Shown: piece after piece, positions 1 through 31,980 of the stretch | How positions within the stretch are numbered: position 1 is the stretch's first letter | How the letters are laid out: each line of letters opens with the position of its first letter | Source: Candidatus Helarchaeota archaeon | GTDB lineage: Archaea > Asgardarchaeota > Lokiarchaeia > Helarchaeales > RDOG01 | Length of the DNA stretch: 64,000 nucleotides | NCBI GenBank assembly: GCA_029838215.1 | Contig: JALGVI010000011.1 | Coordinates: forward strand, 26,705 to 90,704 | Direction: 5' to 3' | Position numbers and translations under genes: made by a program | The notes under the pieces: model-generated | Seen by the model: only the letters and a program-made list of their open reading frames with translations | What the model was told of the DNA's origin: nothing | Databases searched by the model: none

Positions 1-2118
1 ATCATTGGAAAAAATGTCATTCAAGAACTTGAACTGTTCGAAAAAAAGACGCGCGTGTTGAAAGATATTCTTAACGTTACGATGCAGTTAAAAAACACTA
101 ATAATCCTGTTGAAAAAGAAGAATTGGAGCAGGAAAGGGGCAAGCTATTGCATCAGTTTGTTTTATCATTGTTTAGAAAATACCCCGACTATTTCTTTTT
201 CGACCAAGTCGGAGACCTCTTTGGATTGACCATTCAAACTCGAATGGAAATGATACAACTTGCATCCGAATTGAAAATCACCCAAATGGACATTAGTGAA
301 GAATTCAAACGTGAATACTCCGAAACGTTGGTTGAACTTGGAACTTTCACGCACTTGCGGGAATTCTTCACGAAAAAATGGGAACTTAAAGGTGCAATTC
401 GGCAATTAGAAACACAAAAGGTCACATTCCGGCGAATTGAAAATGAATTAATGAATAAAATAATTGAATCATTCCCATTCAGCCAGAAAGGACAAAAGGC
501 AAGTATTGATGCATTACATTTAAAACTGAAAATCATTGATGAATTTAAAAAGCACGTATCAACTCCGCGATCATTTAGAAACCTTGAAAAAGACATCTCA
601 AAGTTGGTCCGTTTTGAGATTTATAAGCAAGCACTGGAAAGTCCTCAGAGTTTTGTTGATTTTTTTTCAAGGCTTCTTGACTTGCCGTTCAATGACGTGA
701 TGGAATTCTTTCGCAAGGTTCGAATCTCTAACATTCCTGCATTTTGCCAGATGTTAGCAGTTCCCGTGCAAATCATTTCCAAAAAATTAAGTGAAATGAA
801 TATTAGGGATATGGATCTTACTCGTCTTTCTGAAAAAGGCGGTTTAAATATTGCAAGACAAAAATTTGAGGAAAAGAAAAGCCAACGACACGAAGCCATT
901 ATCTCGATGTCTTTTGAAGAGTTCGTGAAAACTGGCGAACAATATCCTGACTTGAGACAATTCTCCCGCGAGTTCCTTTCGGAAATCACGCTCAGTCTTC
1001 GGGACTTGCAGGACCTCTTGGAAAAAGAAAAAATACTTAAAAACGAAATATTGATACCGTTTCAGGTCGTTAACGTGGATAATCTACGTTTAGCACTATC
1101 TTCCATCCCTATTCTAACTAATTTGGAGAAAGAAATCTTCTATCACGTGCTCAAGAACATCTTGCGGCACATATCTCGGCTCATCGAACAATATGAGAAG
1201 CTGAAAAAAGACAAGGAAATCTTCCTGCTTGCGTTAAAAAAAATTCCTCAATTAACTGAATCCGAAAATTGGATACAAGTAAAGCTTGAAGATTTGATCA
1301 TCAAGAAAATAATGGCACGACAAAAAGAATTCCACGATTTATTTCGCTTTAACAATTCTCATCTCATAAATGGGTTCTTATGGGCTCGACTTTCTAATTC
1401 TTCCTTTCAGGACGCATCTAAAATTATCAAGGAAACTCCAAGTCCTGTATATCATGGCCTCTATCAATTCCCACTCACTTATGAAGAAATACCTCCTGTT
1501 TCCTTTGCTTCTGCATACGACCTTACAATGCGTTTGCAAGCATCCCTTAAATTAAAAGAAACCAAGATCATTGAAGCAAGGGCTAAATCAGTCGCGAAAG
1601 AGAAACCAATGACTAAAATTGAAGATATTGAAACATTTAGTTGGATTGAAAAACGGATAAAAACAGCAATAATGCGAGTAGGAAAAATATCCCCAACAGA
1701 TCTATACTGGACTGATGAGGACACGAAAAAATTTGGGAGTAACTTCCTCTTACACGTGCAAGTAATGGATGCAAAAAAAATATGCCCCGAGTGTGGTGCA
1801 ATCCAGGTAGATAACTGCCCGAAGCATCAAAACGGTTCCTTGATCCGACCGAATAAGATCCAAGCAATGGCTTCATATTATCAATTTGCATCTGAAAAAA
1901 TCGGCTCGAAAGAATTCTCAACAAACCGTCAAGAAGTTGAAGAAATAACCAAGGAAGTCATGAAAGAACGACTCGGTCGGGACCCAATTGCAGATGAATA
2001 CAAACAGCTTCTCGAAGGTGAAATCCGCCTGATCGGCGAAAAACTGGCAGAAAAGGTGGGACAAAAATTCAATAAAACATTATATAAAAAATATCGAAAA
2101 ACAAAATTAGGTAAATAA
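1..2118 (+). CDS. Large helical hypothetical protein, 5'-truncated by the window edge
   Basis: Frame is open from base 1 (IIGKNVIQELEL...) through ORF 55..2118. Mostly helical; CPECG...C-x2-H motif near the C-terminus. No family recognised. Confidence 0.75.
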   Translation: MIGKNVIQELELFEKKTRVLKDILNVTMQLKNTNNPVEKEELEQERGKLLHQFVLSLFRKYPDYFFFDQVGDLFGLTIQTRMEMIQLASELKITQMDISEEFKREYSETLVELGTFTHLREFFTKKWELKGAIRQLETQKVTFRRIENELMNKIIESFPFSQKGQKASIDALHLKLKIIDEFKKHVSTPRSFRNLEKDISKLVRFEIYKQALESPQSFVDFFSRLLDLPFNDVMEFFRKVRISNIPAFCQMLAVPVQIISKKLSEMNIRDMDLTRLSEKGGLNIARQKFEEKKSQRHEAIISMSFEEFVKTGEQYPDLRQFSREFLSEITLSLRDLQDLLEKEKILKNEILIPFQVVNVDNLRLALSSIPILTNLEKEIFYHVLKNILRHISRLIEQYEKLKKDKEIFLLALKKIPQLTESENWIQVKLEDLIIKKIMARQKEFHDLFRFNNSHLINGFLWARLSNSSFQDASKIIKETPSPVYHGLYQFPLTYEEIPPVSFASAYDLTMRLQASLKLKETKIIEARAKSVAKEKPMTKIEDIETFSWIEKRIKTAIMRVGKISPTDLYWTDEDTKKFGSNFLLHVQVMDAKKICPECGAIQVDNCPKHQNGSLIRPNKIQAMASYYQFASEKIGSKEFSTNRQEVEEITKEVMKERLGRDPIADEYKQLLEGEIRLIGEKLAEKVGQKFNKTLYKKYRKTKLGK

Positions 2119-2128
2119 AATAAATGGA

Positions 2129-2746
2129 TTAGCTTTTTTTTGCTGCCTTCATCCGCAAGAAGAACTTGAGAACCGCGTCTCTTGCGACTTGCTGAAAACT
2201 TCTTTTAATATTCTTTCCCTGTATGGCAACTGTCTCATAAATCTGTAACGGCATCTCAATTCCGTGAGGATTTATGATCGTTCCCAATCCGCGCTCTTTA
2301 AAATATTGTTCAATCTCTGTCCTAGGGGTCAAGTTTGGTAAATCCATCTTGTTAATTTGAACCAAAAATGGAATTGACTTTCCAAGCTTATTTCCCAAGT
2401 GCCCAATTAATTCATCTAATGACCATAAATTTTCCTCAAGTTGCTCCTTCTGCGCATCCCACACGAAAATAATTCCATCGGCTCCATTTAGAATTGTCTT
2501 ACGCTGGAATTTATGACGTCTTTGCCCTGCACAAGTATAAACTTGCATGGTCACTCCTCCAACTCCCGCCGTCATACGATCAAAGAACAAAGTTCGACCT
2601 GTCGGATCAACTATGCTTTGCATCTTACCAGTTGCCATCCCTTCTTTATCAAACATCCATTTAACAGCGGTTGTCTTGCCCGACAAAGAAGAACCCCAAT
2701 ATACTATTTTGAAGACTAATTTACCGTCAGCACCTCGGCTTGGCAT
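2129..2746 (-). CDS. MglA-like small GTPase
   Basis: KIVYWGSSLSGKTT (G1), GRTLFFD (MglA-type switch), TCAGQ (degenerate G3), NKMD (G4). Confidence 0.85.
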   Translation of the reverse strand: MPSRGADGKLVFKIVYWGSSLSGKTTAVKWMFDKEGMATGKMQSIVDPTGRTLFFDRMTAGVGGVTMQVYTCAGQRRHKFQRKTILNGADGIIFVWDAQKEQLEENLWSLDELIGHLGNKLGKSIPFLVQINKMDLPNLTPRTEIEQYFKERGLGTIINPHGIEMPLQIYETVAIQGKNIKRSFQQVARDAVLKFFLRMKAAKKS

Positions 2747-2941
2747 GGTATATTTGCTCCTTTTTTCCTGAATATTCCTCTTAACTTATAATTATCATAC
2801 GTACTAATGATTCAAAACTCTTTGACTCCAGTTTTGACTCATGGACTTCTTGACTCATAAATATTTAAAGAAACGACTAGTAATCTCTTATTTTAATTTA
2901 TTTACACAAGATTTAAATTAATAGCAAGAATCAACGATAAA

Positions 2942-3592
2942 TCACGTTTTAAAATTCTCGAGAAAGTACTCATGACCTATATTTAATGCCTTGAGGCTTG
3001 CTTCAAGATCTTTGGTTTGTTCACCCATTACTTCTTCAAAATGCTCTTTTTCTATTGGAATGGAAGAAGAAGCCAGAGCTGCCCCAAGAATGATGTTATT
3101 CGTAAATAATGGATTTTGAAGATGCTCAATCGCCAATTGAGTTGCACCAAACACGTAAATCTTGGTAGATCCTGAGATGTCCTTAATGGCTTGCGTGATT
3201 TCTTCGATGGATGGATAACGAGCCAGCTCCGAAATCGTGGAAGGAGGTTCGATCACGTAATCGTTGATGATAAACGTGGTTTTGTCCGACGTATATTTTG
3301 CATTTCGCAAGATTTCCACGGGCTCTAATCCGATTGCTAAATCTGCCTCACCAATTGATAACGTGGGTGAAGTTAAATAATAAGGATCAAGTTCTTCATC
3401 TTGCTCCAATATGAGCATTCGAAGGTGGACATCCACTGAACCCTCACGCTGAGCTAAACCATGCTTTTCTGCACCGAATATTTTTCTAATTCTTTGTGTT
3501 TTTAGTGCGGCATGTTCAATAAATCGCTTGAGAGTGATAACGCCCGTTCCTCCAATACCGGCAATTACCGCAGTCCATATCTTCATTTTCAT
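2942..3592 (-). CDS. iorB: Indolepyruvate:ferredoxin oxidoreductase beta subunit
   Basis: GIGGTGVIT, EKHGLAQREGSV, GEADLAIGLEPVE, NNIILGA; lies directly after iorA. Confidence 0.9.
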   Translation of the reverse strand: MKMKIWTAVIAGIGGTGVITLKRFIEHAALKTQRIRKIFGAEKHGLAQREGSVDVHLRMLILEQDEELDPYYLTSPTLSIGEADLAIGLEPVEILRNAKYTSDKTTFIINDYVIEPPSTISELARYPSIEEITQAIKDISGSTKIYVFGATQLAIEHLQNPLFTNNIILGAALASSSIPIEKEHFEEVMGEQTKDLEASLKALNIGHEYFLENFKT

Positions 3593-22178: not shown

Positions 22179-22294
22179 GGCGAGCCGTTGCACAGGTGGT
22201 CCTGGGCACCGGACTTCAGAGTCTCTAAAAAAATACGGAGCAATCCGGTATACCTGACGAAGGTATGGGGTTCGATTCCCCCGGCTTGCCGCCA
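22179..22294 (+). tRNA. selC: tRNA-Sec (UCA), 9/4 fold, with a 23-nt intron at 37/38 (22220-22242)
   Basis: 9-bp acceptor GGCGAGCCG / CGGCTTGCC, G73 and encoded CCA; 7-bp D stem with TGGT loop (one A.G); anticodon CT-TCA-G; 6-bp variable stem; 4-bp T stem GGGG-TTCGATT-CCCC; BHB around the intron. Confidence 0.93.
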
Positions 22295-28447: not shown

Positions 28448-28644
28448 TGTCTAGGTTACTTTCGAACCCGGCACGCTCGGGTGTTTGGGGGCCGCACGCT
28501 GAACATCTCCTTTCGTTGATGCGTACACGCCGGCTCCATCAAACTCCTCTTTTAGGAGAACCCTCGTCTGCTGCAATCCGTTGCTGTCACCAGCCCCGGA
28601 CGACCCATGCCTCGCAGCAGAATGGACGGCTCGTTTCAGGTTTC

Positions 28645-28675
<31 letters not shown>

Positions 28676-28801
28676 GATTGCAGCGTGGCTGCCCGGCATT
28701 GCCCTATCGGACAACCGGTAGACTAGTGGCTACCGCACGCCGTTCCTCTCGTACTGAGCGTCCGTTACCCTCAGCCATCCAACACCCCCAGTAGATAGAA
28801 T

Positions 28802-28844
<43 letters not shown>

Positions 28845-28932
28845 TTAATGGGCGTACAGCCCCACCCTTGGCAGCTGCTTCACCGCCAGGATAGGAAGAG
28901 CCGACATCGAGGAAGCAAGCCGCGGGGTCGAT

Positions 28933-29028
28933 TTACTCGAACCCCCCATTTCAGCTCTTCTGAACGTAAGCACATCGCATGTGAGAGAAGACTCATGTTA
29001 AGTTTGAAAAGTGTCTGTGGGGAGCTCT
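28933..29028 (-). other. 96-nt BHB intron in 23S helix 89
   Basis: Removal restores GAGCUCACAUCGAC. Central helix GCUC/GAGU, bulges AC|A and AA|A, 9-bp intron stem GAGCUCCCC/GGGGGGUUC. Confidence 0.88.
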
Positions 29029-29574
29029 GTGAGCTCTTGCCCGCGACGACTCTGTTACCCCCGGGGTAATTTTTTTGTCGCCACCTACTCCCATGAATGG
29101 AGATTAGATGGATCGCTAGGCCACGCTTTCGCGTCGGGATTCATCATTGGGCAGAATCCCATCAGGCCAGCTTATGCCCTTGCACTCTACGAAGCGTTTC
29201 TGTCGCTTCTGAGCTGACCATTGGGCCTCTTTGATATCTTTTCAAAGAGGTGCCGCCCCAGCCAAACTGCCCACCTGAAGGTGTCCTGAAGCACATGGCT
29301 CCAGTCAGTGATACAACGTACCGAGGCCAGTATTCCACGGTTGCTGGTTCGTGACCCGAAAGCCACAACCCATGAGCTCCTGGCTATGCTATGCGCGACA
29401 CACCGCACCACAACATCAGGCTGCAGTAAAACTCCACGGGGTCTTCTCTTCCCACTGGGGGATCCCGGACTGTTCGCCGGGTAGTGGGTTCACCGGGTAG
29501 AAGGTAGGGACAGTGGGGACCACGTTGATCCGTTCATGCACGTCGGTACTTGTCCGACAAGGCATTTGGCTACC

Positions 29575-29825
29575 TTTATTAACATTGATTATAATTGATA
29601 AGCGGGATATCTATCAAATTTTTCATCTATTTTTGTTCTTAATGGCTTGGTAGTTCTGATATTAAATTTCTCGTTTTAAGTTTCTGAAATAAATTCTATA
29701 GAAGGATGTTTTCCTTCCACTAGACTCTTGAATTTTTTGTTTAATGATTTCTGTTGTAATTAATGTTTAATTATGACGTTTATTATCAGAGATAGTCCCA
29801 GAATCTTGACGCAGCAGAACACTTG
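29575..29825 (-). other. 251-nt intron at about E. coli 1927 of 23S, AT-rich with an eroded ORF
   Basis: Removal restores CUCUCUUAAGGUAGC. Junction is ambiguous by 1-2 nt and the BHB is imperfect. Confidence 0.85.
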
Positions 29826-31980
29826 TTAAGAGAGTTATAGTTACTCCCGGCGCTTAGCGGAGCTTACTCCGGTTGGACCCGGTTATGACTGACCGCCGCT
29901 GGCCAGGATTCACAAACTGTACACAGGCTTTCGCCCTTGAGTCACTGCGACCGGAGGTCCCAGGTATCAGCCCAAGACTGCCGGCACTCCTTATCCCGAA
30001 GTTACGGAGCTAATTTGCCGATTTCCCTTACCTCCTGTACACCCGACACGCCTGAGGCTTCTCACCTAGGAGCACCTGTGTTGGATCTTGGTACGGACAC
30101 GGAGGATCCTTCGCGATTTCCTTTTCATGGGCTCCAAGAATCAACCAAACCACCCTCTATTGGGTGGCCATTCATCTTTTCACCCGGTTCTCACCATTGC
30201 GGTACTCCCCGGGTTTATGGATTTAGACAAGGCGATGACCCTGCTTGGCCTATCTCAAAGCGTCAGAAATCGCGCCTACGTTACCGCAAGCGTACCTCCG
30301 TGGTACAGGAATATAAACCTGTTTCCCTTTCGGCTCTTACGTATTAAGAAGAGTCTTAGGACCGACTAACTCTCGGCTGACGACGCATCGCCGAGAAACC
30401 CTTGTCCTTTCGGCGGCATGGATTCTCACCATGCTATGCTGTTACTACCACCGGGATTTTCACTGCTGACCGGTCCACAGGAGATCACCCCCCTGCTTCG
30501 TCCCAATCAGCACGCCTTCCTACCAAATCACGGCTATTGCCGTGCTCCGAGGTATCGGTGGCTGGCTTGAGCCCCGTCCATTTTCGAGGCCCATGAACTC
30601 GATGGGTGAACTGTTACGTACTCTTTAAAGGATGGCTGTTTCTAAGCCTACCTTCCCATTGTCTTCGTCCACGAACGCCCTTCAGTTTGACACTTAGCCA
30701 GCACTTAGGGACCTTAACCCCGGTCTGGGTTGTTCCCCTCTCGGCAGCGGGGCTTACCCCCACTAACCCTTCTCCGGGCTTCTACGGTGCTAGCACGTTC
30801 GGAGTTTGTAAGACAAGAGAGGATGTCACTCCCCTTGCTTGCCAATCAGTGCTCTACCGCACTAGCTACCTCCACCCAGGCTACACTGAGATGTACTTCG
30901 GAAGGAACCAGCTATTTCCAGGCTAGATTGGCCTTTTGCCCCTATTCCCAGGTCATCAATGCGAATTGCACGTCAGCTAATGTTCAGGCCTCCACGGCAG
31001 TTTCCCGCCGCTTCACCTTGCCCAGGAATAGATCGCCTGGCTTCGGGTTTTATAACTTTGACTACGGCCCTTTCAGACCGAAGTTTCTCGGTTGGTCCTT
31101 CTCAAGGTTCTTGTGCTTCCACCTGCTCTAGGAGCTCAGGCTTACGCCAAGGTGTTGGCACCGTCGCCAAGACAAGTGCACCAACTTGCAAACTTTTCGG
31201 TTTCCCTGCGCTTCAGGGGTTGAACCCCTTGAGCTCGCCAAAATCATAAACTCCCCGGCCCGTGTTTCTAGACGGAATTAGTGACATTAGTCCTCTCCTC
31301 TCGTACTACCGGATTGCTCCGGGTTCCTTCGAGGAGAATCTGCCCTTTCATGCCACTAACGATCATGCCCAACTGGTTTCAGGCTCTTTGCACTCCTCTT
31401 CCGAGGTCCTTTTCAACTTTCGGTCACCCTACATAGTACGCTATCGGTCTGGGGGAGTATTTAGACTTGGAAGTTCATGGCTCCCATCTTCACGCGGGAT
31501 ATCCAACCCACGCTACTCTGGAATCTCAGCCCAGCGCCGTCCTCGTTACGTCTACGGGGCTATCACCCTCTACGGCTCATCTTTCCAGATGAATTTGACT
31601 TCCGAGGGGGGGCGGCGGCTGAGTCCAAAACACTACATCCCCGCGAGCTTTCACAGGCGGGTTCAGTTTGGTCTGTTCCCTGTTCGTTCGCCATTACTAA
31701 GGGAATCTCATCTTGATTTCTTTTCCTGCGGGTACTGAAATGCTTTAGTTCCCCGCGTTCCCGTTCCCTATAGGGAACGTTACGGTTTATTAGACCGCAA
31801 CACTACGTCGCATTCGGCAATCTCCGGATCTCGGACTGCGTGCGTCTCCCCGGAGCTTATCGCAGCTTGCCACGGCCTTCATCGGCTCCCCAGCCGAGTC
31901 ATCCACCAATTGGGGTCGGCGTTGACGGGTTCTAATCGTAATTGCCCTAGGTCGAGCTAAGGCTCGAAATATTTACCTCA

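Follow-up and report, generated by a model that had tools for sequence, protein, structure and literature searches.

A probable 96-nt protein-free BHB intron in the helix 89 loop of an Asgard 23S rRNA gene, at a site with recurrent inserts across archaea

In crenarchaea, BHB introns interrupt the 23S rRNA genes of Desulfurococcus mobilis, Staphylothermus marinus, Pyrobaculum organotrophum and Aeropyrum pernix. The locus analysed here, a 96-nt insert in the apical loop of helix 89 of a 23S rRNA gene, shares with these introns, which are mentioned in PMC4496867 and PMC6125680, the host gene, junctions of the BHB type, the substrate of the tRNA-splicing endonuclease, a location in a conserved and functionally central part of domain IV/V and the existence of relatives with intron-less alleles. 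It differs from them in its Asgard (Helarchaeota-type) host, its length of 96 nt and its lack of a homing-endonuclease ORF, and to our knowledge the helix 89 loop position, E. coli 2477/2478, is not among the crenarchaeal 23S intron positions. Archaeal pre-tRNA introns at position 37/38 have the identical hBHBh' form, each 3-nt bulge being cut behind its second base, and helix 89 is similar to their exon half, a stem topped by a seven-base loop. The same proteins, EndA and RtcB, would act in both cases, whereas the host molecule here is an rRNA. Like the intervening sequences in helices 25 and 45 of bacterial 23S rRNA, the insert is an extra hairpin at the tip of a 23S helix that would be excised post-transcriptionally; the bacterial elements differ in that they lack a BHB and in that RNase III excises them and the ends are not ligated, so that their rRNA stays in fragments.

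Short, hairpin-forming, ORF-less BHB introns were described in the 16S rRNA genes of Thermoproteales (Jay and Inskeep 2015, PMC4496867). The present insert is likewise small and protein-free, a nearly bare hairpin closed by a BHB core, and in both cases fixed rRNA loci recur while the interior is poorly conserved. Unlike those introns, which belong to the small subunit and to another phylum, it lies in the large subunit beside the peptidyl-transferase centre. The group I introns listed for archaeal LSU genes lie at sites 1923, 1931, 2500 and 2593 only, and site 2477/2478 is absent from Table 1 of that survey (Nawrocki et al. 2018, PMC6125680). They too occupy recurrent sites in domain IV/V and may share a gene with BHB introns, but as self-splicing ribozymes they measure from about 300 nt upwards. 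A group I identity was rejected for the present insert, as no Rfam family matched at E ≤ 5 over positions 28925-29036 and 96 nt are too short for the core. An intron of the homing-endonuclease type was rejected as well, since 96 nt cannot hold a LAGLIDADG or other such ORF.

The window, i.e. the whole stretch of 64,000 nucleotides that was analysed, carries on its minus strand an LSU (23S) rRNA gene at positions 31931..28465, which matched Rfam model RF02540 (archaeal LSU rRNA) over model positions 1-2987 with 2591.9 bits. The genome is a metagenome-type assembly of 3.6 Mb in 170 contigs, 94% complete and with 6.2% contamination, and the gene lies inside a 64-kb contig. A search of the whole assembly with RF02540 returned this single LSU rRNA match; as the sole LSU gene of a 94%-complete assembly, it must give a working rRNA. 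The host had been called Asgard-like from its sequence, and the comparison set bears this out: its same-family relative (G001) is a Candidatus Helarchaeota, and Heimdallarchaeota RS678 belongs to the same phylum set.

The insert occupies positions 29028..28933 of the minus strand. In the cmscan alignment, the helix 89 loop comprises 98 window bases against 2 positions of RF02540, a net insert of 96 nt. From GGGRTAACAG to TCGATGTCGG the window counts 161 nt, as against 65 nt in each of the 11 same-class relatives with the region, hence the insert is exactly 96 nt long. These two measurements agree with the sequence-only reading, which had placed an ORF-less 96-nt insert at 28933-29028. Since intron and exon 2 both begin with A, homology is compatible with two registers, 29028..28933 and 29027..28932; the BHB rule, which puts the cut behind the second bulge base, decides for the former. 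In an ungapped alignment the first base of exon 2, position 28932, corresponds to A2478 of E. coli 23S rRNA (the rrl gene is 524-3427 of locus L305, and the match begins at 3001). With exon 2 beginning at 2478 and a joined length of 65 nt, the further claim that the conserved loop (E. coli 2477/2478) would be regained by excision is supported at the level of sequence. No second copy of the insert was detected in its own genome, in which all other matches were chance similarities with E > 0.3. A metagenome contig sharing a 20-mer of the junction was discarded as a chance match, being neither rRNA nor similar to the window by BLAST. Within the insert, no Rfam match to a C/D box RNA or other small-RNA cargo and, by eye, no convincing C box were seen.

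Unconstrained folding of the 132 nt at 28915-29046 (minus strand) yielded a strict hBHBh' structure in both the minimum free energy (MFE) and the centroid fold. In the MFE fold the exon strand of the central 4-bp helix, GCUC (29034-29031, E. coli 2472-2475), pairs with the intron strand GAGU (28938-28935), all four pairs being counted. The 5' bulge AC|A (29030-29028) and the 3' bulge AA|A (28934-28932) are unpaired in both folds, with predicted cuts at 29029/29028 and 28933/28932, respectively. On the intron side, helix h' consists of 10 contiguous base pairs between 29027-29018 and 28948-28939, again in both folds. On the exon side, helix h is helix 89 itself (5' strand 29035..29046, 3' strand 28915..28931 in the MFE fold), in which GA (29036-29035) forms two pairs with UC (28931-28930), followed by a CGCGGG/CCCGCG stem. 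Next to the central helix, just these 2 bp (GA/UC) precede the internal mismatches of helix 89, which counts against the motif; the stem of helix 89 shows compensatory changes among relatives. The canonical BHB proposed earlier is thus recovered in a fold on which no constraint was placed, with a GCUC/GAGU helix, ACA and AAA bulges and a 10-bp h'. All EndA types accept the strict hBHBh' form.

The cut positions predicted from the bulges are the same as the boundaries derived by homology, and the joined exons match both the length of the intron-less alleles and the RF02540 consensus. As a rough estimate, the chance of four central and at least nine contiguous intron-helix pairs at a fixed register is about (6/16)^13, or about 3e-6. 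The folding z-score of the whole segment was only -2.1, and 8 of 200 shuffled sequences folded equally well; with so modest a z-score, the case for a BHB rests on geometry, register and comparison and not on folding energy.

The genome encodes both a predicted splicing endonuclease and an RNA ligase, the proteins on which a BHB intron relies. The EndA catalytic domain PF01974 was found in two ORFs with 102.8 and 78.3 bits, one of 190 aa (G000:C168:14184-14756; L031:1210-1782) and one of 219 aa (G000:C1:87093-87752; L032:1126-1785). Inspection by eye located the catalytic Tyr...His...Lys pattern in the 190-aa ORF and not in the 219-aa ORF. This suggests a catalytic and a structural subunit, as in the crenarchaeal heterotetramer, and hence a putative two-subunit enzyme of broad specificity. 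A single gene for RtcB ligase was found (PF01139, 577 bits).

We consider it highly probable, at roughly 0.87, that the 96-nt insert is an archaeal BHB intron which is cut by EndA and whose exons are rejoined by RtcB, and that it is a protein-free passenger. In the precursor rRNA, the loop bases GCUC would form a helix with GAGU, close to the insert's 3' end, and the insert's own termini would pair with each other, so that helix 89 would be extended into a continuous series of helix, 3-nt bulge, 4-bp helix, 3-nt bulge and helix. EndA would then cut after the second base of each bulge, at 29029|29028 and 28933|28932, and RtcB would join the exons to the normal seven-base loop of helix 89. The 96-nt intron itself would probably be circularised by RtcB. 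Judging from the structure of the ribosome, an additional arm on helix 89 so close to the peptidyl-transferase centre would probably not be tolerated. Given that this gene is the only LSU gene, removal of the 96-nt arm is probably obligatory. The intron itself would most likely be a neutral or selfish passenger whose removal has to precede maturation of the peptidyl-transferase region. Among 24 public sequencing runs, none contained more than 15% of the words sampled from 28465-29900, and the words found are probably just conserved rRNA words.

The helix 89 site is intron-less in the closest relative, Candidatus Helarchaeota archaeon LW55_61 of the same family (G001), and in ten other genomes of the same class. 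The intron would have been either gained in the window's own lineage or repeatedly lost elsewhere. A wider view was obtained by BLAST, with an intron-less helix 89 sequence run against 400 genomes of the phylum; 179 genomes matched, and in many of them the alignment was interrupted precisely at the loop. Inserts of 46-470 nt were located at this position in 20 other Asgard genomes of six other families: in every genome with a match in families f15 (9/9, including Heimdallarchaeota RS678), f18 (5/5) and f14 (3/3), and in one genome each of f12, f16 and f32. Their interiors are similar only within a family, and the window intron has no sequence similarity to any of the helix 89 introns collected. 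The long inserts (259-470 nt) contain stop-free stretches of at most 100 codons, which we read as not representing a gene.

The junctions of these Asgard inserts allowed the central helix to be compared between introns with unrelated interiors; the inserts were located by breaks in the BLAST matches and no structural pattern was used. Each of the 18 distinct junctions has three or four of the four central pairs. The second pair follows the exon, being C-G in the nine junctions with exon C2473 and U-A in the nine with U. The third is U-A in 13, C-G in 2 and U-G in 3 junctions, and the fourth is C-G throughout (18/18). The central helix covaries with the exon across independent Asgard introns.

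Several other irregularities were encountered in the same survey. Several Asgard assemblies have contigs that stop at most a few bases away from the helix 89 loop (e.g. G236:C160, G224:C25, G062:C3, G020:C15, G007:C22 and G272:C26), and those of G062, G020, G007 and G272 show the uninterrupted loop sequence at the break. Such ends may nevertheless reflect a failure of assembly at places where some strains have the intron and others lack it. Many Asgard genomes of other families, among them G324, G386, G063, G078, G053, G057 and G307, carry inserts of about 110-790 nt at E. coli ~2450/2451 (query 156/157), upstream of helix 89, a second and very common site; two genomes (G125 and G131) apparently have inserts at both sites. 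A same-class genome with an intron-less helix 89 (G029:C174:56200-56251; loci L015, L020 and L030) carries roughly 39 additional bases, located about 45-55 nt downstream of the loop (query 315-327).

A scan of one genome per prokaryote species extended the comparison beyond the Asgard phylum. The pattern for the 3' junction ran from a purine-rich strand over two further bases to ATYGAC, followed by helix 89's 3' strand; a looser version had been swamped by chance matches in GC-rich bacterial coding DNA and was replaced by this stricter one. It returned 102 stretches, and all of the 80 matches listed are archaeal. According to the submitters' labels, these 80 comprise 27 Woesearchaeota, 13 Nanoarchaeota or Nanoarchaeia, 11 Heimdallarchaeota, 10 Methanosarcinales, 6 unnamed archaea, 4 Methanobacteriota, 3 Thermoplasmata or Methanomassiliicoccales, 2 Promethearchaeota and one each of Thorarchaeota, Hodarchaeota, Altiarchaeales and Bathyarchaeia, the contig of the last having been grouped with the Asgard genomes in the phylum search. 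An insert of 22-470 nt, mostly of 29-46 nt, is present at the site in 99 of the 100 evaluable stretches. Four of four central pairs were counted in 95 of these 100 stretches, but the second to fourth pairs are partly imposed by the scan pattern, so that the species scan documents spread and not covariation, for which the Asgard set alone is independent.

These results bear on the suggestion, made from the sequence, that the helix 89 loop may be a new insertion site. It stands insofar as a literature search found no paper describing an intron in this loop; rRNA intron catalogues lay outside that search, so that the label "uncatalogued" is unproven. It does not stand in the sense of a singular event, given the recurrence in 20 other Asgard genomes and in 102 archaeal species genomes. 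Apparently, a well-known kind of element occupies a site which is widespread and undescribed.

Three other explanations of the insert have to be weighed against a spliced intron. One agrees with it up to the cleavage step: EndA would cut the BHB and the exons would stay unjoined, which would leave the mature 23S rRNA fragmented at the helix 89 loop. The sequence evidence indeed speaks to recognition and cleavage alone and not to ligation, and fragmented 23S rRNAs work in some bacteria and organelles. We nevertheless regard this outcome as very unlikely, as the genome encodes RtcB and as the exons of the experimentally studied archaeal rRNA introns, those of Desulfurococcus mobilis and others, are ligated and the introns circularised. 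We also know of no precedent for a permanent break in a loop beside the peptidyl-transferase centre. According to another explanation, the 96 nt stay in the mature rRNA and represent a lineage-specific helix 89 expansion. It draws on the roughly 55 nt that are inserted in the H98/ES39 region of the same LSU gene and on the expansion segments that Asgard LSU rRNAs are reported to carry (PMC7594248). Relatives share such segments, yet the insert is missing from 11 of 11 same-class relatives with the region, including the one of the same family, and the identity as an expansion segment was rejected on this ground. At the same site elsewhere, the interiors of 22-470 nt are unrelated to one another, while only the BHB geometry is kept and the central helix tracks the exon. 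A constant geometry around a variable interior is what is expected of a processing signal and not of a structural element, and retention of the 96 nt is in our judgement likewise very unlikely.

The remaining explanation questions the DNA itself, in that the insert or the whole gene would be an assembly artefact or a decaying, non-functional rRNA copy. The fragmentation and contamination of the assembly (170 contigs, 6.2%) are compatible with it, and so is a defect elsewhere in the gene. At 29939/29940 (minus strand), between GTGACT and CAAG, 38 nt are missing which are present in 8 of 8 compared Asgard relatives. They include the universally conserved GACUGUUUAAUAAAAACA, which was not found elsewhere in the assembly with up to 2 mismatches. 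Either an assembly error or a genuine and very unusual loss may account for the gap, which leaves some doubt about the assembly or the functionality of this rRNA gene and slightly lowers our trust in its assembly. A chimeric join, however, would not produce a BHB so exact that cutting it gives back the conserved loop, and artefacts would not turn up at one and the same site in about 100 assemblies made independently; the gene also reaches its full-model score as the only LSU gene and inside a long contig. We therefore give very little credence to an artefact or a decayed copy and retain the reading as a spliced BHB intron.

The distribution of the inserts invites a more far-reaching interpretation, which we put forward as an unlikely one. 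The helix 89 loop at 2477/2478 could be a major undescribed hot spot for archaeal rRNA introns that was colonised independently in Asgard archaea, DPANN, Methanosarcinales, Methanobacteriota and Thermoplasmata. Its stem and seven-base loop would mimic the exon half of a pre-tRNA BHB, and introns would arrive there without a homing endonuclease, for example by the EndA/RtcB reaction in reverse followed by reverse transcription. Maturation of the peptidyl-transferase region would then depend on the tRNA-splicing machinery.

Taken by itself, the window intron adds one case to the endonuclease-spliced introns of archaeal rRNA genes. In the broader picture, which is the more useful one, a single position, the helix 89 loop, is occupied by protein-free BHB introns of 22-470 nt in about 100 archaeal species genomes from several phyla. 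For these lineages, rRNA annotation, LSU phylogenies and the design of probes and primers need the insert removed. In intron-bearing organisms, maturation of the ribosome would depend on EndA and RtcB. A site that repeatedly gains unrelated ORF-less introns is also relevant to the question how BHB introns spread without homing endonucleases.

Further features were observed in the same LSU gene and its neighbourhood. A second insert of 252 nt lies at approximately 29575-29825 on the minus strand, between CUCUUA and GGUAGC, where cmscan aligned 252 bases to 1 model position (RF02540 2031/2033); this is the classical rRNA intron region around 1927-1931, and the second insert counts in favour of the intron reading. 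The insert of about 55 nt mentioned above lies at approximately 28568-28622 (minus strand), after model position 2882 and near the 3' end of the LSU, in the H98/ES39 region for which expansion segments were reported in Asgard archaea (PMC7594248). On the plus strand, a tRNA-Sec gene was detected at 22179-22290 (Rfam, 52.9 bits), for which the sequence-only reading had noted a candidate BHB intron of 23 nt.
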